64,000 nt of DNA from Verrucomicrobiota bacterium. GTDB lineage: Bacteria > Verrucomicrobiota > Kiritimatiellia > CAIQIC01 > JAGNIJ01. Within the stretch, counting starts at the first letter, position 1; each line of letters starts with the position of its first letter. This document shows positions 3,176 through 62,188 of this stretch, in pieces. The stretch covers positions 72,320 through 136,319 of the forward strand of contig DAISJM010000001.1 in the NCBI GenBank assembly GCA_036821485.1, given 5' to 3'. The notes under the pieces are model-generated. The model saw only the letters and a program-made list of their open reading frames with translations, made no database searches and was not told the origin of the DNA. The position numbers and the translations under genes were made by a program.

Positions 3176-3221
3176 ATAGGGGCTGGCTTGTGGGCATTCC
3201 CAGGCGCAAGGAGGACCACCC

Positions 3222-3626
3222 TTGAGAAAGATACTCTCTGTCGATGATGATCCCAACGTACTCAGGGCTTTCCAAACCACGCTGAAGCAGAAGGGGTACG
3301 AGGTATTCATCACCACCAACCCGAATGAGGCGGCGGACATTCTGGCGGCCCACGAGATCGATCTCATCATGCTCGACATCCGCATGCCGGAGAAGAACGG
3401 GTTCGAGATCTTTGCCGAAGTGAAGAAGAAGTACAGCAAGCTGCCCGTGCTGTTTGTCACCGCGTATCCAAAGTCCTTCACCATGCGATCGAGCGAAATG
3501 GTGCGCATGTGGGAGGAGGATTTTGCGGATGGCCAGACCGACATCCTGTACAAGCCTTTCACGATAGATTCGCTTTACGAAAAGGTCGAAGGACTGATTG
3601 GCAAGGCCGACGAATTACCGTCATGA
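3222..3626 (+). CDS. Stand-alone response-regulator receiver (CheY-like) protein
   Basis: TTG start six nt after the AAGGAGGA RBS. Receiver motifs are present: SVDDDP, IDLIMLDIRMP (phospho-Asp), LPVLFVTAY and ILYKPF. Confidence 0.8.
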   Translation: MRKILSVDDDPNVLRAFQTTLKQKGYEVFITTNPNEAADILAAHEIDLIMLDIRMPEKNGFEIFAEVKKKYSKLPVLFVTAYPKSFTMRSSEMVRMWEEDFADGQTDILYKPFTIDSLYEKVEGLIGKADELPS

Positions 3627-5598: not shown

Positions 5599-5649
5599 TT
5601 TTTCCAACCCTTGGAAAAGACGCAGCACGATTTTCCAAGGGTTGGAAAC
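5598..5649. repeat. Palindromic element copy A (TTTTCCAACCCTTGGAAAA-N12-TTTTCCAAGGGTTGGAAA)
   Basis: A 19-bp arm and its exact reverse complement, separated by 12 nt. It starts at the stop codon of the upstream PLP gene and ends 14 nt before the ygeY RBS. Related copies lie at 19064-19117 and 47278-47328. Confidence 0.8.
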
Positions 5650-5663
5650 TTTAGGAGGACTCC

Positions 5664-6857
5664 GTGAAAAATAAGTTCTACGAACTGGCAAAGAAGAATG
5701 AAAAGGCCCTGGTCCAGTTCATGGCCGACATTGTATCGATTCCCTCACTGAGCAGCCAGGAAGGCGCCGTCGTCAAACGCATGGCCGATGAGATGAAGAA
5801 GCTCGGCTACGACGAAGTGACGATCGACGGCATGGGGAACCTGATCGGCCGCATCGGCAACGGCCCCATCAAGATTGCGTTCGACGGGCACTGCGACACG
5901 GTCGACGTGGGCAACGCCTCGCTGTGGAAGAAGAAACCCTATCCGGCCACGATTGAGAACGGGATTCTCTACGGGCGCGGCGCGAGCGATCAGAAGGGCG
6001 GCGTGGCGTCGTCGATTTACTGCGCGCCGCTGCTCAAGGAGGCCGGCCTGCCGAAGAACGTGTCCGTCTACGTTGTCGCTTCGGTGCAAGAGGAAGACTG
6101 CGACGGCCTTTGCTGGCAGTACATCGTCAAGGAACACAAGCTGAAGCCCGACGTGGTGTGTTTGACCGAGCCGACCAGTCTCCGGATCTATCGCGGGCAT
6201 CGCGGCCGCATGGAGATCGAGGTTGCGACGTCTGGCATCTCGTGCCACGGCTCTGCGCCCGAGCGCGGCGTGAACGCGGTCTATAAGATGGCGCCGATCA
6301 TCAAGGATATCGAACAGCTCAACGAACGGCTTCAGCCGCGCGCGCCGCTGGGGAAGGGGACGGTCACGATCAGTCACATCCGTTCCACGTCGCCCAGCCT
6401 TTGCGCGGTCGCCGATGGGTGTACCATTCATCTCGATCGCCGGCTCACCGTTGGCGAAACGGAAGAGACCTCGGTGAAGGAGTTGTACGATCTGCCGTCC
6501 GTCAAGGCGGCGGGCGCAAAGGTCACCGTGCTGGATTACGCAGTACCCAGTTGGAAAGGGCTGACGTACCCGACGAAGAAATACTATCCGACGTGGGAGT
6601 TCCCCGAATCGTCACCGCACGTGCAAAAGGCGATTGCCGGTTACGAGGCGACGTTCGGACAGAAGCCGGAGGTCGGCCACTGGACCTTCAGCACCAACGG
6701 CATCGCGACCGCGGGGATGTTCGGCATTCCGTCGCTGGGCTTCGGCCCGGGTCATGAGAAGTTCGCGCATTTTCCGGACGAGCAGATCGAAATTGAGCAT
6801 CTCGTTCGAGCTGCGGCATTCTACGCGGGCTTTGTTTCCGCGTTCGGCGAGCGCTGA
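5664..6857 (+). CDS. ygeY: YgeY-family M20 peptidase/hydrolase (selenium-metabolism-linked hydrolase family)
   Basis: 397 aa. N-terminus MKNKFYELAKKNEKALVQFMADIVSIPSLSSQEG; HCDTVDVG, GASDQKGG and HGSAPERGVNAV match the ArgE/DapE M20 fold. RBS TTAGGAGGAC. Confidence 0.85.
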   Translation: MKNKFYELAKKNEKALVQFMADIVSIPSLSSQEGAVVKRMADEMKKLGYDEVTIDGMGNLIGRIGNGPIKIAFDGHCDTVDVGNASLWKKKPYPATIENGILYGRGASDQKGGVASSIYCAPLLKEAGLPKNVSVYVVASVQEEDCDGLCWQYIVKEHKLKPDVVCLTEPTSLRIYRGHRGRMEIEVATSGISCHGSAPERGVNAVYKMAPIIKDIEQLNERLQPRAPLGKGTVTISHIRSTSPSLCAVADGCTIHLDRRLTVGETEETSVKELYDLPSVKAAGAKVTVLDYAVPSWKGLTYPTKKYYPTWEFPESSPHVQKAIAGYEATFGQKPEVGHWTFSTNGIATAGMFGIPSLGFGPGHEKFAHFPDEQIEIEHLVRAAAFYAGFVSAFGER

Positions 6858-26001: not shown

Positions 26002-28365
26002 ATGAGTGTTGCCTTCGGACCCCGCCGCGCTGTAATGATCAACATCGCCGACGAACTCAAGAATGGCCCTGCTCCTGTTTCAGAGGCGGATCTCAAATCA
26101 TTCGAATTCCTCGACTTGGTGTATCGCTGCATGGTGGCGGTGCTCTACAACTACGTCCCGGGCTCCGGTCATCCCGGTGGATCGATTTCCTCCGGCCGTT
26201 TCGTCGAAGGCATTCTCTATGACGCAATGGATTACGATTTCTCGGACCCGGATGCAGCGGGCGCGGACATGATTTCCTACGCCGCGGGCCACAAGGCCTT
26301 GGGGTTGTACGCGATGTGGGCGTTGCGCAACGAGGTGATGCGGATCGCGCGGCCCGACCTGTTGCCCAAGCGCGCCGAGCTTCAGTTCCGGCTCGAGGAC
26401 CTGCTTGGCTTCCGGCGCAACCCGACGAACGACACGCCGCTGTTCAAGCAGTTCAAGGCCCGCGCGCTGGACGGACATCCGACGCCCGCGACGCCGTTCA
26501 TTCGTCTTTCCACCGGCGCATCCGGCGTGGGCGTGGCCGCTTCCTTCGGCCTTGCACTGGGCGCAAGGGACATCTATCGCGCGGATTCGCCGCGCGTGCA
26601 CATTGTCGAAGGCGAGGGCGGGATGACGCCTGGCCGCGTGGCCGAGGCCTTTGCCGCCGCCAGCTCGACGCGCCTTGGCAACATCATCATGCACATCGAC
26701 TGGAACCAGGCGTCGATCGACAGCAACCGGGTATGCCGCGACGGCAATCAGCCCGGCGACTACGTCCAGTGGGATCCGGCCGAATTCGCCTACCTGCATG
26801 ACTGGAATGCGATTCTCGTGCCGGACGGCAAAGATTTCCGCCAGGTGTTTGCGGCGCAGCACCGCGCGCGGGCGCTGGACAACGGGCAGCCGACGGCGAT
26901 TGTCTATCGCACGGTCAAGGGTTGGCAGTATGGCATCGAAGGCCGTGCGTCGCACGGCGCAGGCCACAAGCTCTGCTCGGCGGGCTACATGTCCGCTGTG
27001 ATGCCGCTTACCGTTGAGGCACAGACGCGCCTGCCGCAGTGCCAGAGCGATATGCGCTGTGGCGGCACCGACCGCAATATTATCGAGCAGTGTTACTGGG
27101 ACGCGCTGTTGGTGGTGCGCGAGTCGTTGACGAAGCACCGCGATCGTATCGCGCCGTTGGCCGAACGGATTGCAGCATCACGCGAGCGCCTGCAGAAGCG
27201 CGGCCGGAAGCCGCACGCCGGCGCGCCGAAGATTTCTGCGATCTACGACCGGAAGCAGGTGGACCCGAAACAGGTGCCTGCGGGCTTGGTACTGAAATCC
27301 GGTTCCTCGACGACGCTGCGCGCGGCGCTTGGCGATGTGCTGGGCCATCTCAACAAGCTCAGTGGCGGGGCCATCCTGACTGCGTCTGCCGACCTGCTGG
27401 GTTCCACATCGGCGTCGAACGCTGCCAAGGGATTCCCGGAAGGCTTCTTGCAGTACGATGCGAACCCGGACGCGCGATTAGTCGCGACAGGGGGCATCTG
27501 CGAGGACGCCATGGCCGGCATTCTGTCGGGTCTTTCCACCTATGGTTTCCATGTCGGCGCAGGTTCGTCGTACGGCGCATTCGTTGCGCCGCTCGGGCAC
27601 ATTGCCGCGCGGTTGCACGGCATTGGCAACCAGGCGCGGCAGGCTCTGGTCCCGGACGATCCGTTCAAGCCGTTCATTCTGATCTGCGCACATGCCGGAT
27701 TGAAAACGGGCGAGGATGGCCCGACGCATGCCGATCCGCAGCCGCTGCAACTGCTGCAGGAGAATTTCCCGAAGGGCGTGATGATCACGCTTACGCCGTG
27801 GGACCCGCAGGAGATGTGGCCGCTGGTGATCACGGCGCTGCAGAAGCGGCCGGCCGTGATCGCGCCCTTTGTCACGCGGCCGAATGAGAACGTGCTGGAT
27901 CGTGCGGCGCTGAAACTGTGCCCGGCGGGCGACACTGTCACCGGCCTGTACGCTTTGCGGAAAGCGGATCCGGCCCGCCGCCGTGACGGCACGATCGTGC
28001 TGCAGGAGAGCGCGGTGGCCTATGCCTTTGTCGAGGAAGCGTTGCCGCTGATCGACAAGGCGGGCCTCAACCTGAATGTATTCTACGTTTCGTCGGCGGA
28101 GTTGTTTGATCTCCTGCCCGACGCCGAGCGCGAGAAGATATTCCCCGAGGAACTTGCGCAGGAAGCGATGGGCATCACCGGGTTCACATTGCCGACGATG
28201 CACCGCTGGGTGCGGTCGGCGCGCGGATTGGCGCACACGCTGCATCCGTTCATGCGGGGTCACTTCCTGGGCAGCGGTGCGGGAGCGGCCGTGCTGGCCG
28301 AGGCGCATCTCGACGGTGCAAGCCAGTTCAAGGCGATCGAGAAGTACATCAAAGCGCGCGGATAG
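26002..28365 (+). CDS. Transketolase-family TPP-dependent enzyme (atypically long, ~788 aa)
   Basis: ATG at 26002 after a GAGGAGAG RBS. VPGSGHPGGSISSG is the TK TPP motif. The Pyr and C-terminal domains are present but interrupted by inserts. Confidence 0.65.
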   Translation: MSVAFGPRRAVMINIADELKNGPAPVSEADLKSFEFLDLVYRCMVAVLYNYVPGSGHPGGSISSGRFVEGILYDAMDYDFSDPDAAGADMISYAAGHKALGLYAMWALRNEVMRIARPDLLPKRAELQFRLEDLLGFRRNPTNDTPLFKQFKARALDGHPTPATPFIRLSTGASGVGVAASFGLALGARDIYRADSPRVHIVEGEGGMTPGRVAEAFAAASSTRLGNIIMHIDWNQASIDSNRVCRDGNQPGDYVQWDPAEFAYLHDWNAILVPDGKDFRQVFAAQHRARALDNGQPTAIVYRTVKGWQYGIEGRASHGAGHKLCSAGYMSAVMPLTVEAQTRLPQCQSDMRCGGTDRNIIEQCYWDALLVVRESLTKHRDRIAPLAERIAASRERLQKRGRKPHAGAPKISAIYDRKQVDPKQVPAGLVLKSGSSTTLRAALGDVLGHLNKLSGGAILTASADLLGSTSASNAAKGFPEGFLQYDANPDARLVATGGICEDAMAGILSGLSTYGFHVGAGSSYGAFVAPLGHIAARLHGIGNQARQALVPDDPFKPFILICAHAGLKTGEDGPTHADPQPLQLLQENFPKGVMITLTPWDPQEMWPLVITALQKRPAVIAPFVTRPNENVLDRAALKLCPAGDTVTGLYALRKADPARRRDGTIVLQESAVAYAFVEEALPLIDKAGLNLNVFYVSSAELFDLLPDAEREKIFPEELAQEAMGITGFTLPTMHRWVRSARGLAHTLHPFMRGHFLGSGAGAAVLAEAHLDGASQFKAIEKYIKARG

Positions 28366-28368
28366 AGG

Positions 28369-28632
28369 GTGTCGGGAGCAAGGGCAAGAGCGAGAGCATG
28401 TGCCTTCGGCAGTCGTCTTGCCCCTTGCTTGAAAGGATTCCTTTTCCGTCCCACTCTCTCCCTGTCTTCATTGCAAGTCCCCCTCCTCTCTCTTTTCTTG
28501 CACGTAGAGCAGAGACTTCATGCGCATATGCGCATGAAGTCATATGCGTTGCGAGGGTTGAGGCCTCTGTGAGTCGCGAAAGATGAAATATTCGTGAGTC
28601 GTGAGGGATGAGATCTTCAGCACGGGCGGCGC
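28369..28632. mobile_element. Low-GC (~48%) insert immediately after the transketolase-like stop, containing a 24-bp perfect palindrome
   Basis: The palindrome is CTTCATGCGCATATGCGCATGAAG at 28516-28539. A hairpin AGGGCAAGA...TCTTGCCC and a direct repeat GTGAGTCG x2 are also present. Composition is unlike the flanks. Confidence 0.5.
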
Positions 28633-28721
28633 CAGCCAGTTCGCAGCGATCGAGAAGTACATCAAGGCGCGCGGCTGAAGCCGCGCGCGGTCTTCCGCGT
28701 AAACGCGGAACTCGGGCGGTC
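28633..28721. repeat. Divergent duplicate of the last ~15 codons of the transketolase-like gene, fused to REP copy 1 (double hairpin)
   Basis: 28633-28678 encodes ASQFAAIEKYIKARG*; the gene ends ASQFKAIEKYIKARG*. The hairpins are GCGCGCGGC-TGAA-GCCGCGCGC and TTCCGCG-TAAA-CGCGGAA. Confidence 0.75.
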
Positions 28722-28771
28722 GGAGTCCCGCCTTTAGGCGGAAGCGTTTGGCCACGCTTCAGCGTGGCGAC

Positions 28772-29404
28772 TCACAGGTCAGGCTCGTCCCATCCGTGCC
28801 CCATTTCAAGAACTGGGTATTTCTTCCATGTGCGCTCAGCATAGTCCCTTCCGACCCGATCCAGATATGGGGCTGCACTGGAAAACGGCCAATCGGTCCA
28901 GCGAGCGGCATACCCGTGGCGGACGGCATTGTGGTGAATGTAGTTGAGGGTGGCCCAGCGGTGATCGACAGACCGGACAGGCTTCAGCAGGCAGGCATGC
29001 CAGCATTTGCGACCCGCTGCGTTGTCCTCGACGTTCCATGTGTGAGAAGTGCGCCCATGAAGTTGTCCAAGGGCTTTGCGCAGCCGGGTCACATCAATGC
29101 ATTGGACCAGTGCATGGTAGTGGTTGGGCAGAATACACCATGCCATGGTGACGAGGGTTTCCGCTCTCAGAAACGCATCCAAATCGTTGGAGAAGGATGA
29201 GAGTCGTTGTGGGGTTGATCCGAGCAGCATGGCGTGCTCGTAGCAGGATGCGGCCAGATGAAACCAATTTGTCTCCAGTCCGTGCGGCGGTCGGTGCCAA
29301 GGCTGCTTTGATATCTGGCGCAGCCTGAGAACATCGGCTCGCTGGGCGGGTGTCATCTTGCGCCAGTTGTACATGTGTTTATCCCCGGGTCTAAGGGGGC
29401 GCAT
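28772..29404 (-). CDS. REP-associated tyrosine transposase (RAYT, IS200/IS605-like HUH Y1 transposase)
   Basis: The HUH motif is ILPNHYHALV, and the Tyr motif NYIHHNAVRHGYA matches the RAYT Y(I/V)HxNPVKHG signature. The ORF is flanked by REP copies at 28667-28721 and 29443-29496. The start may be an internal Met (M11 or M17). Confidence 0.7.
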   Translation of the reverse strand: MRPLRPGDKHMYNWRKMTPAQRADVLRLRQISKQPWHRPPHGLETNWFHLAASCYEHAMLLGSTPQRLSSFSNDLDAFLRAETLVTMAWCILPNHYHALVQCIDVTRLRKALGQLHGRTSHTWNVEDNAAGRKCWHACLLKPVRSVDHRWATLNYIHHNAVRHGYAARWTDWPFSSAAPYLDRVGRDYAERTWKKYPVLEMGHGWDEPDL

Positions 29405-29442
29405 GATGTCTCAAACTGTGTCTGCAGCGAAGTCTTTTTTTG

Positions 29443-29496
29443 CGCGCGGCTGAAGCCGCGCGCGGACTTCCGCGTAAACGCGGAACTCGGGCGTCA
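29443..29496. repeat. REP copy 2 (same double hairpin, same orientation as copy 1)
   Basis: GCGCGCGGCTGAAGCCGCGCGCGGACTTCCGCGTAAACGCGGAACTCGGGCG, 50/52 identical to 28667-28718. It abuts the stop of the serine dehydratase gene and follows a T9 run. Confidence 0.8.
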
Positions 29497-30768
29497 GCAC
29501 TGCGCGGCGCCGGTCGGATCTGGCGGTACGGCGGGGGCTTCCTTGCCGGCGCGTTTTCGCCAGAGTTGTGCGAGCCCGCCGAGCGCTGTTTCGCGGTAAG
29601 CTGCCTGCAGGTCGTGGCCGGTTCGGTACATGACCTCGACCACATCATCAAAGCTCACCAGGTGTTTCCCGTCGGTCAGCGTTGCGAACATGGCGCATTC
29701 GAACGCGCGCAGGCAGGCGGTCATGTTGCGTTCGATGCAGGGAATCTGGACGTAGCCCTCCACCGGATCGCACGTGAGGCCGAGGTGATGCTCCATGCCG
29801 ATCTCAGCCGCGTACTCGATCTGCCGGATATTTCCACCCAGGATTTGTGCGCCCGCGGCGGCGGCCATGGACGACGCTGAGCCGATCTCGCCCTGGCAGC
29901 CGACCTCGGCGCCGGAGATCGATGCATTGGCTCGGATCACCGCGCCGAACAACCCCGCCGTGGCCAGCGCCTTGAGGATTGTATCGGTCGGCACCTTCTT
30001 GATCGTTTCGTAATAGTAGAGCAAGCCGGGCACAACGCCCGCGGCGCCGCAGGAGGGGGCGGTGACAATCTGGCCGCCAGCGGCGTTTTCCTCCGCGACA
30101 GCGAGAGCGAAGGCGGAAAGATAGGTCAGCCCGCGATGTGGCGTATCAAGTTCCGCAGCCTTTTCGTAGATGCTTCGGGCGCGGCGTCGCAGCTTGAGAG
30201 AGCCGGGAAGAAACTCTTCCCTGCTTTCGATGCCGCGGACGACGCAGCGCTTCATGGCGTCCCAAATGGGGGTGAGGCGTTGCCAGATGTCTTCTTCCTG
30301 CCGTTCGAGATACTGCCAGAAATTGAGGCCGCGATCTTCGCAGAAGGAGAGGGTGCTGGAGATGGTGCGCGCCGGGTAGCGTTTCACTTCCTTGTCGCCG
30401 GTCAGTCCGTTGGCGTCAACGAGATTGCCGCCGCCGATGCTGAAGACGGTCCACTCTTTCAGGAGTTGGCCTTTGCGATCCAGCGCTTCGAAGCGCAGGG
30501 TGTTGGGATGACTCAGGGCCGTGGTCGTCGTATCCCAGACGAACTCGTGAGGAATAGAGCCGAGCGCCTCGCTGATACTTTTGTCGGTGAGATGGCCCCT
30601 GCCGGTGGCGGCAAGGCTGCCGAAGAGCGTGATACGAATACGGGCGGGCGGCTGTTCCATCATCTTCAGAAACCACTTCGCCGCGCGTTGCGGCCCCATG
30701 CTGTGGGAGCTCGATGGTCCGCTGCCGATTTTGAATATCTCGAAGATGGAACCGACGTAAGGCTGCAT
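29494..30768 (-). CDS. sdaA: L-serine dehydratase, iron-sulfur-dependent, single chain
   Basis: 424 aa. The N-terminus MQPYVGSIFEIFKIGSGPSSSHSMGP is the classic L-serine ammonia-lyase signature; alpha and beta regions follow. Confidence 0.85.
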   Translation of the reverse strand: MQPYVGSIFEIFKIGSGPSSSHSMGPQRAAKWFLKMMEQPPARIRITLFGSLAATGRGHLTDKSISEALGSIPHEFVWDTTTTALSHPNTLRFEALDRKGQLLKEWTVFSIGGGNLVDANGLTGDKEVKRYPARTISSTLSFCEDRGLNFWQYLERQEEDIWQRLTPIWDAMKRCVVRGIESREEFLPGSLKLRRRARSIYEKAAELDTPHRGLTYLSAFALAVAEENAAGGQIVTAPSCGAAGVVPGLLYYYETIKKVPTDTILKALATAGLFGAVIRANASISGAEVGCQGEIGSASSMAAAAGAQILGGNIRQIEYAAEIGMEHHLGLTCDPVEGYVQIPCIERNMTACLRAFECAMFATLTDGKHLVSFDDVVEVMYRTGHDLQAAYRETALGGLAQLWRKRAGKEAPAVPPDPTGAAQC

Positions 30769-30920: not shown

Positions 30921-32132
30921 ATGAAGAAGAAACAGCCCCCCCGACCGAGCATTTCCAGCCTGATCTCAGACATTCGCAAACTCAAGGCCGACCTGTGCGG
31001 GAAAGACTTTCTGCTGACGTGGGACAAGTCCGTCCCCGAATTGAAGCTCGTGGTGCAGGTGGCGGAGGCTTTGAAACAACTGCACGCGAAGAACATTTCC
31101 GCCAAGGTCTTTGAGACGGGGCTGGCCGTTTCGAACTTCCGCGACAATTCGACCCGGACACGCTTCTCCTTTGCATCCGCCTGCAATCTGCTCGGCCTTG
31201 CGGTGCAGGATCTTGACGAAGGCAAATCGCAGATCGCCCATGGCGAAACCGTTCGCGAGACGGCGAACATGATCTCGTTCCTCACCGAGGTGATTGGTAT
31301 TCGTGACGACATGTTCCTTGGCGCGGGTCACACCTACATGCTGGAGGTCGGCGAGGCGTTGGATGATGGATTCAAGCGCGGCGTGTTGAACCAGCGTCCG
31401 GCCATTGTGAATCTGCAGTGCGACATCGATCATCCGACGCAGAGCATGGCGGACTTGATGTGGCTGCGCGAATACTTCGGCGGGATCGAGAATCTGAAGG
31501 GCAAGAAGATTGCCATGACGTGGGCCTACTCGCCGAGCTACGGCAAGCCGCTCTCCGTGCCGCAGGGCATCATCGGTTTGATGACGCGATTTGGCATGCA
31601 TGTCTCGCTCGCGCATCCGGAGGGATACGACCTGATTCCGGATGTGATCGAGGTGGCGAAGAAGAACGCGAAGGCGGCGGGCGGCAGTTTCACGCAGGGG
31701 ACATCGATGGAGGCCGCGTTCAAGGATGCGGACATCGTGTATCCCAAGTCGTGGGCGCCCTACAAGGTCATGGGGACGCGGACAGAACTCCTGCGCGCGA
31801 ATGATCGCGACGGTCTGAAGGAGTTGGAGAAGAAGTGCCTTGCGCAGAACGCCAACTTCAAGAACTGGGAGTGCACGGAACAGAAGATGAAGCTGACGAA
31901 GGGCGGCAAGGCGCTCTACATGCACTGCCTGCCTGCGGACATTTCCGGTGTCTCCTGCAAGGAAGGCGAAGTGGCCGATTCCGTGTTCGAACGGTACCGC
32001 ATCGAGACGTACAAGGAAGCCGGCTACAAACCGTTTGTCATTGCGGCGATGATTCTGACGAGTCGATTCAAGGATCCTGCAGCCATCATTTCCGGCCTTG
32101 CCAGGCAAGGCAACAAGCGGATTGCCGGGTGA
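30921..32132 (+). CDS. ygeW: Knotted carbamoyltransferase YgeW
   Basis: 403 aa, near-collinear with E. coli YgeW from memory: FRDNSTRTRFSFASA, DEGKSQIAHGETVRETANMISF, CDIDHPTQSMADLMWL and ALYMHCLPADISGVSCKEGEV. Confidence 0.9.
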   Translation: MKKKQPPRPSISSLISDIRKLKADLCGKDFLLTWDKSVPELKLVVQVAEALKQLHAKNISAKVFETGLAVSNFRDNSTRTRFSFASACNLLGLAVQDLDEGKSQIAHGETVRETANMISFLTEVIGIRDDMFLGAGHTYMLEVGEALDDGFKRGVLNQRPAIVNLQCDIDHPTQSMADLMWLREYFGGIENLKGKKIAMTWAYSPSYGKPLSVPQGIIGLMTRFGMHVSLAHPEGYDLIPDVIEVAKKNAKAAGGSFTQGTSMEAAFKDADIVYPKSWAPYKVMGTRTELLRANDRDGLKELEKKCLAQNANFKNWECTEQKMKLTKGGKALYMHCLPADISGVSCKEGEVADSVFERYRIETYKEAGYKPFVIAAMILTSRFKDPAAIISGLARQGNKRIAG

Positions 32133-32242
32133 ATGTCCAATGACCAATGCCCGAATGACCAGTGAAGGCGCAGCAGACGGGAGTCTTCTATTATTGGGCC
32201 TTGGTGCTTGGTCAATGGTCATTGCTCAGGAGGGTCCATTGC

Positions 32243-33190
32243 ATGAGTAAGCCTCCTCTTGTCGTGATTGCCATCGGCGGCAACTCACTGATCAAGGATG
32301 CCAAGCACATGACGGTGCTGGACCAGTACCGGGCTGCGGGTGAGACGAGTCATCACATCGCCGCGTTGGTGAAGGAAGGCTACCGCATCGTGGTCACGCA
32401 CGGCAACGGTCCGCAGGTCGGATTCATTCTCATGCGGTCGGAGATCGCAAAGACCCAACTGCACCAAGTGCCCCTGGAGAGTTGCGTGGCCGATACACAG
32501 GGCGCGATTGGTTACCAGGTTGAGCAGACGTTGATGAATGAGTTGCGGCGCCAGAATCTCAAGAAAGAGATTGTTGCCGTGGTTACACAGGTCGTGGTTG
32601 ACGCGCAGGATCCGGCGTTCACACATCCCACCAAGCCGATCGGCCCGTTCTTCTCGGAAGAAGATGCAAAGCACCACCAAGAGAAGGACAAGTGGGCGGT
32701 GAAGGAGGATGCGGGCCGGGGTTGGCGTCGCGTGGTGCCCTCGCCGAAGCCGCTTGAGATTGTCGAAGAGCAGACAATTCGCACGCTCCTCGAAAACGAC
32801 ATCCTGGTCATCGCTGTGGGGGGCGGCGGCATCCCGGTGATTCGTCGGAAGAACGGCAATCTGCAGGGTTGCGCCGCGGTGATCGACAAGGATGCCGCGT
32901 CGAGTCTGCTCGCCCAGCATCTGGCCGCTGACCTGTTTGTGATTTCGACGGGCGTGGACAAGGTGGCCATCAATTTCGGCAAGCCCGATCAGAAGTTTCT
33001 CGACCGGATGACTGTGGCCGATGCTGAACTTTACATGAAGCAAGGGCAGTTTCCGGCAGGCAGCATGGGGCCGAAGATCGAGGCGGCCATTTCGTTCCTC
33101 CGGAACGGCGGCAAGAAGGTGCTGATCACCCAGCCGCACCTGTTGGAAGATGCCATGCACGGCAAGACGGGGACTGTCATTGTTCCGTAG
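32243..33190 (+). CDS. arcC: Carbamate kinase
   Basis: Start at MSKPPLVVIAIGGNSL (RBS AGGAGGG). VVTHGNGPQVG, the C-terminal GGGGIPV and the MGPKIEAA motif are present. Confidence 0.85.
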   Translation: MSKPPLVVIAIGGNSLIKDAKHMTVLDQYRAAGETSHHIAALVKEGYRIVVTHGNGPQVGFILMRSEIAKTQLHQVPLESCVADTQGAIGYQVEQTLMNELRRQNLKKEIVAVVTQVVVDAQDPAFTHPTKPIGPFFSEEDAKHHQEKDKWAVKEDAGRGWRRVVPSPKPLEIVEEQTIRTLLENDILVIAVGGGGIPVIRRKNGNLQGCAAVIDKDAASSLLAQHLAADLFVISTGVDKVAINFGKPDQKFLDRMTVADAELYMKQGQFPAGSMGPKIEAAISFLRNGGKKVLITQPHLLEDAMHGKTGTVIVP

Positions 33191-47258: not shown

Positions 47259-47277
47259 GCGCGCCGTGGGCGGCCAG

Positions 47278-47328
47278 ATTTTCCAACCCTTGGAAAATCG
47301 AGCGCTATTTTTTCCAAGGGTTGGAAAA
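47278..47328. repeat. Palindromic element copy B (TTTTCCAACCCTTGGAAAA-N12-TTTTCCAAGGGTTGGAAAAA) between convergent rlmN and the antiporter gene
   Basis: The arms are identical to copy A (5598-5649); only the 12-nt spacer differs. Confidence 0.8.
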
Positions 47329-47350
47329 ATGGGATTCACCCGCCATTCGC

Positions 47351-58626: not shown

Positions 58627-59366
58627 GGGGGGTAAAGTTGGTTCGCCGAATTCCGGGGTGCTGCGAGAGAGAGGGATTGCGTCCGCGGCCGAGACGCGTG
58701 GCGGCTGAGGCCGCGAGGATCACGCGCGATCCCGGCCCGTCTTCTTCGTTGTCGCCAGCGGCGCGGACATCAGTCCAGCGCCGCCGGCGACGCCTTGAAT
58801 ACGGACCGGTCTGGCGCGTTCCCTCGCTTGGGCTCGCTACGCTCGCCCGACCTCAGCCGCCCCGCGGTATCCGACTCGCGGCTCGGAGGACCTCGCCGCG
58901 AGTGAGAATCCCCGACGGCTGTGATCGTGAGAATCTGGAGTGCGGCGGCTCGACGCCGCTCTTCCGAGCGCCCAACGTCGGAGGGATCGAGTACGAGCAC
59001 GAAAGGGTAGAGCCGGGGGTACATTGGCTACGACAGGTAGGGCGCGCACTCCGTTGCGCGCCGCTATGGCGGGCTGAGGGTCAAATACACGAAGCACACG
59101 AAAAAGGGATTTCGTGTCTCTCGTCTATTTCGTGGTGACCTCTTCTTCTGAGAATCGGCGAACCAACTTTACGAAATCATCGCCTGCGGCCGCTTTGTAG
59201 ACGCGATTTCGAAATCGCGTCTACGCAAACGCAAGGCGTCCCCGGACAAGTCGCGCGACGGAGGACGGACTCTGCACTCCAGTCTTCTCCGTGCCTCCGT
59301 GGTTCGTCTTGTGTTTCTTGTGCCTTTTCGTGGCCAATCCGAATTCGGCGAACCGACCTTACCGGC
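58627..59366. repeat. Upstream repeat cluster: three copies of GGTAAAGYTGGTKCGCCGAATT (two inverted), X/Y motifs shared with 50290-50470, and a 28-bp GTAG...CTAC REP-like palindrome
   Basis: Copies lie at 58627-58658 (+), 59153-59172 (rc) and 59339-59365 (rc). GTAGACGCGATTTCGAAATCGCGTCTAC is at 59197-59224. The region immediately upstream of the giant GH gene is AT-rich. Confidence 0.6.
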
Positions 59367-60481: not shown

Positions 60482-62188
60482 CTATCCCTTCATGCCGGTG
60501 AGCGTGATGCCCTGGATGAAATACTTCTGCGCAAAGAAGAAGATCACGATGACGGGCAGGGTCATCAGAAGCGAGCCGGCCATCATCATGCCGAAGTCGC
60601 CGCCCTGCTGGACGTTCAGCGCGTACAGGCCGAGCGAGAGCGGGTAAAGCCGCTGGTCGCTGAGGAACACCAGAGGCCCCATGAAGTCGTTCCACACGCC
60701 CATGAACGTGAAGATCGCGATGCAGGCGAGGGTCGGCTTGATGAGCGGCATGATCACATACCAGTAGATCTGCAGGAAGCTGCAGCCGTCGATCTTCGCG
60801 GCGTCCTCCATGTCGCGCGGGATGCCCTTCATGAACTGGCGGAGCAGGAACACGTTGAACGCGTTGGCGCAGCAGCTCGTGATCCAGAGGGGGCTGAGCG
60901 TGTTGTACCAGCCGAGCGATTTCATGATCAGGAAGTACGGGATCATCGTCACCTGCGGCGGGATCATCATGGTCGCGAGCATCACGCCGAAGCTCAGCGT
61001 GCGGCCCGGCCACTGCAGCCGCGCGAAGGCGTACGCGACGATCGAGCAGGAGAAGACCGTGCCGAGGATGTTGAGGATGACGAGCAGCAGGCTCGTCCCC
61101 GCGTAGCGCCAGAACGGGATGTAGCTCAGGACATTGCGGTAGTTGCGGCTGCACTTGGCCCACCACGCGACCGCCTGCGAGCTCTCGCGCAGGACCATCG
61201 TCACTTTCACCTTGTCCGGCCGCGATTCGAATTCCGGGCCGCGGGCGATCTCGCGGTAGGGAATCCACAATCGGATGCGGCTCGAGTCGGCGGCGTCGGC
61301 GGGTCCGAACTCCTGCAGCGTCACGACCTGCGGCTGGAAGCGGCCGGTGTACTCGGGCCGCATGCCTTGATAGCGGACGCCGTTCTTCTCGACGAAGAAC
61401 TCGATCGCGTGCCACGAGTCGTCGGGCGTCAGCGAGATCTGGATGCGGAACAGGCGGTTCGCCGGAAACGGCAGGTCGATCGTGCGCTCGAGGACGATCT
61501 CCTGACGGCCCGGCGCGGTGAAGTCGTACACGAGGTCGGCGGCGGGGACGGTATCGGCGCGGTCGACGAGGTGGGGTGAAGACGCGATCTGGAGATCGCG
61601 TCTACGAATACTCCAGAACTCTGAAATCGGCCGACCCACTGTAACCTCGTCCTCCTGCACATCGAAGCTGCGCACGCGGACGGAGCCGAACGCGAGATGG
61701 CGCTGGATCTGGCGCGTCACTTCCGCGACCAGTGTGGCGTCGACGGCGTTCGAGATCGCGGCGCGGAGGTCCTCCGGCGAGGCCGACCACGCGGCGCGGG
61801 GAAGCGTCTGCTCCAGGCGTTTGAACACGCCGGGTGCGAGCGCTTCCGGATCCGGCGAGTTCTGCAACGCGGGGAGCGAGAGCAGGAACGGGTGAAGGTC
61901 GCGATAGACGGGGTTGTTGCCGGTCTTGAAATAGGCGGTGTCGAGATACGGCGACTTCAGCGCGGGAACCGGGCGCCCCGGCATCAGCGTGATCCGGTCG
62001 CCGAACATCTCGCGGTCGACCTTGAAGCTGCTGCCGATCATCCAGATGAACGGCAGGGCGAAGACGGCCGAGCCGGCGATCAGAAGCGCGTAGATCGCGA
62101 GTCCTCTGGCAACTGCGTAGACGCGCTCTCCAGAGCGCGTTCCGCGAAGCGGTCTAGAGACCGCTTCTACGCTATCATTCCCCTTCAT
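60482..62188 (-). CDS. Carbohydrate ABC transporter permease (MalG-like) with a ~270-aa loop between TM1 and TM2
   Basis: The EAA motif is DAAKIDGCS. The C-terminal five TM helices are typical. REP-like GTAGACGCG palindromes are read in-frame at the N-terminus and in the loop. Confidence 0.8.
   Translation of the reverse strand: MKGNDSVEAVSRPLRGTRSGERVYAVARGLAIYALLIAGSAVFALPFIWMIGSSFKVDREMFGDRITLMPGRPVPALKSPYLDTAYFKTGNNPVYRDLHPFLLSLPALQNSPDPEALAPGVFKRLEQTLPRAAWSASPEDLRAAISNAVDATLVAEVTRQIQRHLAFGSVRVRSFDVQEDEVTVGRPISEFWSIRRRDLQIASSPHLVDRADTVPAADLVYDFTAPGRQEIVLERTIDLPFPANRLFRIQISLTPDDSWHAIEFFVEKNGVRYQGMRPEYTGRFQPQVVTLQEFGPADAADSSRIRLWIPYREIARGPEFESRPDKVKVTMVLRESSQAVAWWAKCSRNYRNVLSYIPFWRYAGTSLLLVILNILGTVFSCSIVAYAFARLQWPGRTLSFGVMLATMMIPPQVTMIPYFLIMKSLGWYNTLSPLWITSCCANAFNVFLLRQFMKGIPRDMEDAAKIDGCSFLQIYWYVIMPLIKPTLACIAIFTFMGVWNDFMGPLVFLSDQRLYPLSLGLYALNVQQGGDFGMMMAGSLLMTLPVIVIFFFAQKYFIQGITLTGMKG

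Follow-up and report, generated by a model that had tools for sequence, protein, structure and literature searches.

Between two convergent genes of a Kiritimatiellia metagenome-assembled genome (MAG) lies a transposase-like open reading frame (ORF), bordered by hairpin repeats and by a second copy of a neighbouring gene's 3′ end. The question raised by this locus is what kind of element the ORF and the hairpins form, and whether the duplicated gene end has the same origin. The locus was analyzed within a 64-kb stretch of contig DAISJM010000001.1 (64,000 nucleotides, nt), which is called here the window. The intervening region of 1128 nt separates a transketolase-family gene (tkt-like) from sdaA and holds a gene for a REP-associated tyrosine transposase (RAYT), where REP stands for repetitive extragenic palindrome. 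In our opinion, the region probably contains a classical REP/RAYT system in a genome of the Planctomycetes–Verrucomicrobia–Chlamydiae (PVC) group, together with an older and separate joint between the ends of the two neighbouring genes.

The ORF at 28772-29404 (− strand) encodes the NHYH sequence (within LPNHYH) of the HUH (histidine-hydrophobic-histidine) motif and the tyrosine motif YIHHNAVRHGY. The longest reading frame reaches position 29404, and the likely start is the ATG at 29374, because the homologous proteins begin with MYNWR. The gene is therefore placed at 28772-29374 and codes for a protein of 200 amino acids (aa). In profile searches against NCBIfam and Pfam, the protein was matched by the equivalog model NF047646 (REP_Tyr_transpos) with E=2.9e-16 and 59.6 bits (cut-off 80 bits); neither an IS200 model nor any other family was matched, apart from a weak hit to Pfam Y1_Tnp. 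The sole match in the PDB was Escherichia coli TnpArep (4ER8), in which the HUH, Tyr and DWPFS regions were aligned, with a weak E value of 0.013. The initial annotation, which had been made from the sequence alone, had called the ORF a RAYT because of its HUH and tyrosine motifs, and these results bear it out. It had also named assignment to a non-transposase family as the outcome that would speak against a RAYT; the profiles gave only REP_Tyr_transpos and the weak Y1_Tnp match.

A search of 5.8 billion proteins returned 928 homologues at E <= 0.001, nearly all of ~200 aa, from Kiritimatiellia, Verrucomicrobia, Planctomycetes, Lentisphaerae and some Desulfobacterota (Desulfonema). The closest non-identical homologue in this search is 64% identical, thus no close paralogue of the RAYT is known, and every exact copy sits at the same locus. 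Variants with 1-2 residue differences also exist (P0001, P0253). The protein keeps all residues that are invariant across 120 listed homologues and carries the conserved N- and C-terminal extensions of this group (YxWR, PWHxPPH and WxxYPxxxxGxGWD). The GC content of the gene is 57.7%, compared with 62-64% in its neighbours, and no tnpB gene is present near it in the window. In our reading, the ORF is an intact, single-copy gene of a RAYT-type HUH/Y1 transposase.

Three repeat units, each composed of two hairpins, accompany the gene. REP unit 1 (28667-28718, + strand) consists of hairpin HA (28667-28688, GCGCGCGGC-TGAA-GCCGCGCGC), hairpin H2 (28692-28713, CTTCCGCGTAAACGCGGAACTC) and the tail GGGCG. 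REP unit 2 (29442-29493, + strand), found by the repeat finder as the second member of a 52-nt direct repeat, is identical to unit 1 at 51/52 positions and ends exactly at the sdaA stop codon. The first hairpin of this repeat occurs twice in the window, with no occurrence expected by chance; a 17-nt partial HA match at 6327-6343 (− strand) lies within a long ORF and was taken as fortuitous. The third unit, unit′ (28723-28769, − strand), is inverted and comprises HA′ (28752-28769, GCCACGC-TGAA-GCGTGGC), the sequence CAAACG and H2′ (28723-28744, CTTCCGCCTAAAGGCGGGACTC). In general, HA is a GC-rich stem with a CTGAAG loop, and H2 has the form CTTCCGSSTAAASSCGGNACTC. Read on the opposite strand, H2 is a GTAG-type REP hairpin with its foot altered to CGAG in units 1 and 2 and to GGAG in unit′; the foot GTAG itself, which tags the GTAG REP superfamily, is not found in these units.

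The order of the elements is unit 1 (+), unit′ (−), RAYT (−), unit 2 (+), so that the outer two units are direct repeats. Unit′ lies 2 nt from the RAYT stop codon, and the gene has inverted units on both sides. Unit 1 and unit′ form a tail-to-tail doublet with a 9-nt spacer, in which H2 and H2′ agree at 19/22 positions and include one compensatory pair. When folded as DNA, the two units pair into one long hairpin, as is characteristic of a REPIN (REP doublet forming a hairpin). Unit 1 with unit′ is a REPIN-like doublet, and the layout is that of a classical RAYT locus. The two 52-nt copies in the same orientation had been noticed earlier as identical at 50 of 52 bases; their presence and direct orientation stand, and the identity is corrected to 51/52. 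Their orientation had also been described as atypical, which does not hold, because the inverted third unit at 28723-28769 had been overlooked: the RAYT is bracketed by inverted units.

For further evidence on the hairpins, metagenomes were scanned with the core 22-mer CTTCCGCSTAAASGCGGRACTC, which contains two degenerate stem positions (S). The 22-mer was present in at least 119 metagenome contigs, while our own arithmetic gives a chance expectation of ~1 contig for an assumed ~1e12 bases. The two S positions were complementary in all 123 matches listed (101 C/G, 22 G/C, 0 mismatched), and in many matches an HA-type hairpin lay 4-7 nt upstream or an inverted partner of H2 stood close by. Among the matches listed (119 loci), one has a RAYT homologue, L135, as would be expected if the RAYT is a single-copy gene and the REPs are many. 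Loci are designated here by L numbers. In the metagenomes Ga0247839/40, the source of the L135 contig, a unit with the same HA stem was found in at least 10 flank contexts.

In the case of the RAYT homologues with 58-61% identity, four loci were examined (L135, L210, L211 and L212), and bipartite units were observed within ~300 nt of the gene in all four. No further bipartite units were found elsewhere in these loci, which extend over 4-20 kb. In L210, L211 and L212 the RAYT is flanked by units on both sides; in L135 there are full units on the 3′ side, and on the 5′ side they run up to the contig end. In L212, identical 43-nt units stand in direct orientation on either side of the gene. Beside the RAYT homologue of L135, an inverted REP doublet forms a 166-nt tandem repeat (3196-3560), and this doublet is found once more on the far side of the gene. 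The earlier proposal that the flanking hairpins are RAYT-associated REPs was thus confirmed at other RAYT copies. The RAYT homologues of Desulfonema magnum and Haloferula helveola are flanked by REPs of the GTAGTTCCGCCTTTAGGCGG type, which have a GTAG foot. Since these homologous hairpins carry GTAG, we classify H2, from its sequence, as a foot variant of the GTAG REP superfamily, with the feet CGAG, GGAG and AGAG in the RAYT clade studied here. The GTAG repeats of the PVC group have already been described in general terms (PMC3733652). No Rfam family was assigned to the unit at E<=0.01 across 12 REP-bearing loci, and a full-text literature search with the REP sequence returned unrelated primer matches only.

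The initial annotation had conceded that the flanking repeats could be a common intergenic terminator with no relation to RAYT genes. Promoter and terminator scans of 28200-29600 revealed no sites. The signature of an intrinsic terminator, a GC-rich hairpin with a T run after it on the transcribed strand, is not present in this interval; the T run at 29434-29441 is located upstream of HA on the plus strand and not after the hairpin. Matches to known RNA families in the region were rejected as sub-threshold (uxuA, 28 bits vs 66.8; ncS025). There are no terminator-like sites, and the units cluster at RAYT homologues. The flanking double hairpins are, as far as their sequence and distribution tell, the cognate REP of this RAYT and not a generic terminator.

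Two other groups of hairpins were noticed in the window. A second hairpin family with the canonical GTAG foot (e.g., GTAGACGCGATTTCGAAATCGCGTCTAC) occurs at 59197-59224, 61578-61605 and 62117-62170, that is, three times in 3 kb, and its sequence is unlike that of the RAYT-side units. A double palindrome of ~50 nt, TTTTCCAACCCTTGGAAAA...TTTTCCAAGGGTTGGAAAA, each half of which is itself palindromic, has two copies at 5600-5648 and 47277-47329.

The history of the locus was approached through its relatives. Orthologous loci were taken from members of the same 90% tkt protein cluster, and the tkt nucleotide tree had the form ((window,(L083,L088)),(L086,L089)) with L003 as the outgroup. The RAYT is absent from two conspecific assemblies, L217 and L218 (96.8-98.0% nucleotide identity over 8 kb), which have one unit identical to unit 2 at 52/52 positions. 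It is also absent from L083-85 (87% nucleotide identity in tkt), where one unit with two shared HA mismatches is found, and from L088 (85%), whose single unit has the same two HA mismatches and one more in H2. When L217/L218 are aligned with the window, the alignment is interrupted precisely at 28718 and 29442, with an overlap of 52 nt, and the filled and empty states differ by 775 nt, i.e., one unit plus 723 nt. Neither state is an assembly artefact, because both were seen in independent assemblies with substitutions of their own. Strains of one species thus differ in whether they have the RAYT, and exactly one REP unit is retained at the empty site. No RAYT remnants were detected by tblastn in the spacers of L086, L087 and L089; they have only the 12-mer GCCACGCTTCAG in common with HA′ (E ~0.01). 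The GTDB representatives L003-L005 (72-77% tkt identity) were rejected as comparators, being too distant and different in synteny, and P0247 was left aside, as its contig stops just past an aberrant gene end. In one of them, L004 (77%), a carbamoyltransferase gene directly follows the tkt-like gene, the spacer (6290-6400) contains two copies of CACCCCTCACCCCGACCCTCTCCC, and sdaA is missing.

We infer that the filled and empty states are the forward and reverse products of an exchange between REP units, and there are arguments for both gain and loss. By analogy with E. coli TnpArep and the TnpA of IS200/IS605, the RAYT protein would bind and cut the hairpins as single-stranded DNA. An exchange between the direct 52-nt units, catalyzed by the host or by the RAYT, could then interconvert the filled state, seen in the window, and the empty state with one unit, seen in the conspecific strain and in two lineages further removed. 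The initial annotation had described the locus as a snapshot of a REP/RAYT-associated rearrangement. This description is retained in the sense of within-species presence and absence of the RAYT with a one-unit empty site, and not in the sense of a low-GC insertion, which is considered below.

A gain could have taken the form of a recent arrival of the RAYT as a REP-bounded cassette. A 775-nt circle composed of one unit, unit′ and the RAYT gene would have integrated at a resident REP unit by REP-by-REP strand exchange, with the RAYT itself as the catalyst, and L217 would represent the untouched empty site. We regard this as a possibility worth keeping, while leaning against it. Parsimony on the tkt tree agrees with it, as the RAYT is found in the window lineage only and L217/L218, L083-85, L088 and L089/L090 are without it. 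The near-identity of units 1 and 2 (a difference at 1/52), the identity of the L217 unit with unit 2 and the lower GC content of the gene also fit a recent gain. Y1 enzymes are known to excise circles and to reinsert them precisely, as exemplified by IS608 and ISDra2. On the other hand, deletion between 52-nt direct repeats is a common and easy event that yields the same empty site, and the existence of RAYT variants indicates that the gene has been in the population for some time. The HA mismatches shared by the RAYT-less L083 and L088 units, with the additional H2 mismatch in L088, resemble decay after loss. Recombination between strains weakens the parsimony argument, and RAYTs were reported to be vertically inherited and immobile (PMC5581495), which counts toward loss. 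A still more specific proposal is that the RAYT is mobile in its present form: it would cut the same position in both direct units, free a circle of one unit and the gene, and reinsert it at any copy of the unit, the window and L217 being a filled and an empty site. This proposal is tentative, and we consider it rather doubtful.

The duplicated gene end is a separate matter. The real tkt-like 3′ end contains the first copy, A, of a 48-nt direct repeat (28314-28361, + strand), which the repeat finder found to be 88% identical to 28627-28674. The second copy belongs to A′, a pseudo tkt-like 3′ end (28627-28678, + strand) that encodes GASQFAAIEKYIKARG* and has its pseudo-stop TGA at 28676-28678; its last 12 nt are the HA left arm and the start of the loop. 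The re-encoded C-terminus upstream of REP unit 1, reported in the initial annotation, is thus real, with 48 nt at 88% identity. A′ agrees with the real tkt end of L086 at 46/48 positions and with the real end of its own genome at 42/48. A small ORF in the A′ frame (up to 25 codons) was rejected as a candidate gene in view of a 1-nt indel just upstream in L083 and L088.

A further piece, which had been missed earlier, overlaps the start of A′. It is S′ (28617-28633, + strand, TCAGCACGGGCGGCGCC), which repeats the final codons of sdaA together with its stop. In the window, S′ and its source, the last 18 nt of sdaA (29494-29511), are set apart by a single substitution and a 1-nt gap. The corresponding two copies in L083 agree at 21/23 nt, and at 18/18 nt counted from the stop codon. 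Wherever a lineage has the duplicate, S′ is found next to A′. The 3′ ends of sdaA and the tkt-like gene have in common the GC-rich stretch TGG(G/A)CGGCGCC, and at the position matching S′ the tkt-like gene itself contains a similar stretch, CTGGACGGCGCCAGCCAG in L088. Since 6-11 nt of common GC-rich sequence are found in both gene ends, the joint is placed there. The segment from S′ through A′ to the unit (28612-28718 vs L083 8598-8710) is ~97% conserved, compared with 84-87% in the flanking coding and spacer DNA. The S′/A′ fusion may be regarded as the mark of unequal or illegitimate recombination.

Upstream of this joint lies the spacer at 28366-28615, which contains an imperfect hairpin (28378-28428) and CT-rich and GA-rich flanks. 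Its GC content is 53%, and 50% in the core, against a window mean of 62%, which puts it in the lowest 1.7% of 250-nt windows. The low GC content reported previously is thus real, and the earlier value of ~48% for the stretch between stop and duplicate was too low. The spacer is common to L083, L088 and L217 at 84-89% or more and is partly alignable to L089. It harbors a perfect palindrome (28514-28541), GACTTCATGCGCAT|ATGCGCATGAAGTC, with the core (ATGCGCAT)x2; its length is 28 bp and not 24 bp, as first given. The core occurs once per spacer in all five related lineages (L083, L087, L088, L089 and L217), with rearranged flanks. The palindrome segment is found once in the window and at no other locus among the 218 loci fetched. 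We noted that the assembly breaks at the palindrome in L087 and ~120 nt before it in L086. No gene, RNA family, promoter or terminator was detected in the spacer.

In the outgroup L089/L090, the tkt gene ends in the A′ type and is followed by a spacer with the palindrome core and no duplicate. L086 and L087 have the same tkt end as L089/L090 and no duplicate as far as their contigs reach. Since the palindrome is present in an outgroup free of the duplicate, the low-GC spacer is the older state. The low-GC segment is, on this comparison of sequences, the older tkt-sdaA spacer and not an insert.

The initial annotation had preferred the opposite order of events, with low-GC DNA entering between the stop and the hairpin that first followed the gene. 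In the fuller form considered here, a small, foreign mobile element with a central palindrome entered at this point, displaced the old tkt end and supplied a replacement. Comparison of the locus among the relatives goes against this model, and we judge it improbable. It would account for the fact that A′ is nearer than the real end to the ancestral-type tkt end, and it agrees with the low GC content of the spacer. In L089 the HA right arm and H2 survive as a weak remnant, in register beside the sdaA stop, and the HA left arm is at the tkt end; 21/500 shuffles were as good. The remnant hints that the palindrome segment once entered the HA loop. Against an insertion, the palindrome segment is at the locus in both clades, with the duplicate or without it, and its occurrence at this single locus does not suggest a mobile element. 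The sdaA-derived S′ beside A′ is left unexplained, and the spacer contains none of the features searched for.

In place of an insertion, we propose for the duplicated end an older and separate illegitimate or unequal exchange at the TGG(G/A)CGGCGCC sequence common to the sdaA and tkt-like ends. This exchange would have joined two copies of the spacer, a ‘long’ one that carries the palindrome and a ‘short’ one whose REP overlaps the tkt stop, and would have left the sdaA fragment S′ fused to A′. The second gene-end junction would then be the added piece. Alternatively, the duplicated end may have arisen by tandem duplication followed by deletions.

Several observations weigh against the proposed explanation of the locus as a REP/RAYT system with an older joint. 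The RAYT protein falls under the curated cut-offs (59.6 vs 80 for NCBIfam and 18.6 vs 23 for Pfam Y1_Tnp), and its tyrosine motif has N-A where the class-wide form is N-P; N-A was seen in 17/120 listed homologues. The 64-kb window has no REP unit beyond the RAYT locus; the dispersal is documented in other populations. The HA left arm of both outer units coincides with the codons in which the native tkt-like gene ends (GCGCGCGGCT), and these occur in L086/L089 without the HA right arm. This identity may point either to a locally derived unit or to a 10-nt coincidence or microhomology. As regards the joint, the spacer copies flanking it differ completely, so that tandem duplication needs extra deletions, or an exchange between two alleles has to be assumed. 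No ‘short’ (REP-type) allele was found on its own among the lineages compared.

We also considered that the RAYT could be an active insertion sequence (IS) of the IS200/IS605 type, whose left and right ends would be the two 52-nt copies; this is very improbable. Direct subterminal hairpins on the same strand at both ends are the normal layout of IS200/IS605 elements, and the weak Pfam Y1_Tnp match and the precise indel relative to the relatives are in agreement with it. The gene has no close paralogue (the nearest is 64% identical), no NCBIfam IS200 match and no nearby tnpB, and the protein groups with REP_Tyr_transpos and 4ER8. The supposed ends are near-identical 52-nt repeats that include the last codons of the neighbouring gene, and the empty site keeps a full copy, unlike in IS200/IS605. 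Of the features that define these elements, multiple copies, model scores above the threshold and an empty site free of the ends, none was found. Finally, we rejected the palindrome as a Xer/dif-type site (11-6-11) with the rearrangements as integrations at dif, a hardly credible reading: its length and symmetry, its position between convergent genes and the kept core with flanks rearranged in every lineage would fit, but the GC skew is positive (+0.01 to +0.10) over the whole 64 kb with no sign change at the site, no recombinase gene is nearby, and neither the RAYT indel nor the S′/A′ joint is bordered by the palindrome.

The preferred reading as a REP/RAYT system can be compared with several known systems. 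The E. coli TnpArep/REP/BIME (bacterial interspersed mosaic element) ‘REPtron’ (4ER8; PMC3479197) is similar in its HUH motif and single catalytic Tyr, in the DWPFS-type C-terminal region and in the single-copy gene located among its own REP hairpins, inverted ones included; GTAG REPs are present in the related loci. The differences are the weak match (E=0.013), the length of the protein studied here (200 aa) and its conserved N- and C-terminal extensions, a foot that reads CGAG/GGAG instead of GTAG in the REP, and the presence in each unit of a further hairpin, whose CTGAAG loop is conserved. The REPIN-RAYT system of Pseudomonas fluorescens (PMC3116915, PMC5581495) likewise has an inverted REP doublet with a short spacer beside a single-copy RAYT and possible REP decay in RAYT-less lineages. 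In contrast to it, no dispersed copies were found here in the 64 kb examined, and the RAYT, described as stably vertical in that system, varies in its presence among strains of one species, its empty site being precise and holding one unit. TnpA-Y1 subclass 2.8 (Quentin et al. 2018, PMC6006769) is similar in its motifs NHYH, W[YH] (here WH) and YIH-N, its length of ~199 aa and its long flanking REPs. That subclass was described as cyanobacterial with a GT[AG]G foot, and relatives in unrelated phyla were noted (PMC6006769); the RAYT studied here has N-A and not N-P.

The IS200/IS605 elements (IS608, ISDra2) belong to the same enzyme superfamily and have hairpin ends on one strand. Their precise excision and insertion without target duplication is plausible chemistry for the indel. 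Unlike them, the RAYT is not multicopy, lacks tnpB, scores under the Pfam threshold and has an empty site that retains a complete ‘end’. The duplicated gene end resembles the products of homology-facilitated illegitimate recombination or unequal exchange, as the gene ends appear fused at 6-11 nt of common sequence with both duplicated around the joint.

The neighbouring genes were also characterized. The tkt-like gene (26002-28365, + strand), the upstream member of the convergent pair, encodes 787 aa with matches to Pfam Transketolase_N and Transket_pyr; its homologues have 787 aa and start with MSV. This protein lies far under every NCBIfam transketolase cut-off, yet it has >4000 strong homologues. 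The downstream member, sdaA (29494-30768, − strand), codes for an L-serine dehydratase (Pfam SDH_alpha/SDH_beta). Between 24615 and 33190, the tkt-like gene has as neighbours an aminotransferase, sdaA, a YgeW-like carbamoyltransferase, a carbamate kinase and a PALP enzyme, and together they have the appearance of a catabolic cluster not yet characterised. The genes for the carbamoyltransferase and the carbamate kinase are separated by 160 nt in the window (32083-32243) and by 84 nt in the conspecific L217 (7271-7355). In L083 (1155-1801) and L086 (1165-1808), a PIN/MazE toxin-antitoxin pair is located between a gene for a 257-aa protein and a CN-hydrolase gene; the genome of the window has at this position only a 206-nt gap (L001 17443-17648).

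What we describe is a genuine REP/RAYT locus. It is of a known kind, belongs to a phylum that has been little studied, and has a two-hairpin variant of the REP. RAYTs are regarded as immobile, vertically inherited enzymes serving REP populations, and the knowledge about them comes mostly from Proteobacteria. The locus documents a clade of ~200-aa RAYTs that escapes the Pfam thresholds and has hundreds of homologues, and it defines the two-hairpin REP of this clade, whose core hairpin is nearly unchanged across phyla. The duplicated gene end provides a small worked example of how short GC-rich homologies at the ends of convergent genes may create mosaic spacers. Given complete genomes or data at the level of reads, the pair of filled and empty sites within one species makes movement of the RAYT, as opposed to its loss through the flanking repeats, testable. 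If the cassette mobility were true, the two states would show directly, at the population level, that a ‘domesticated’ RAYT is still moving.

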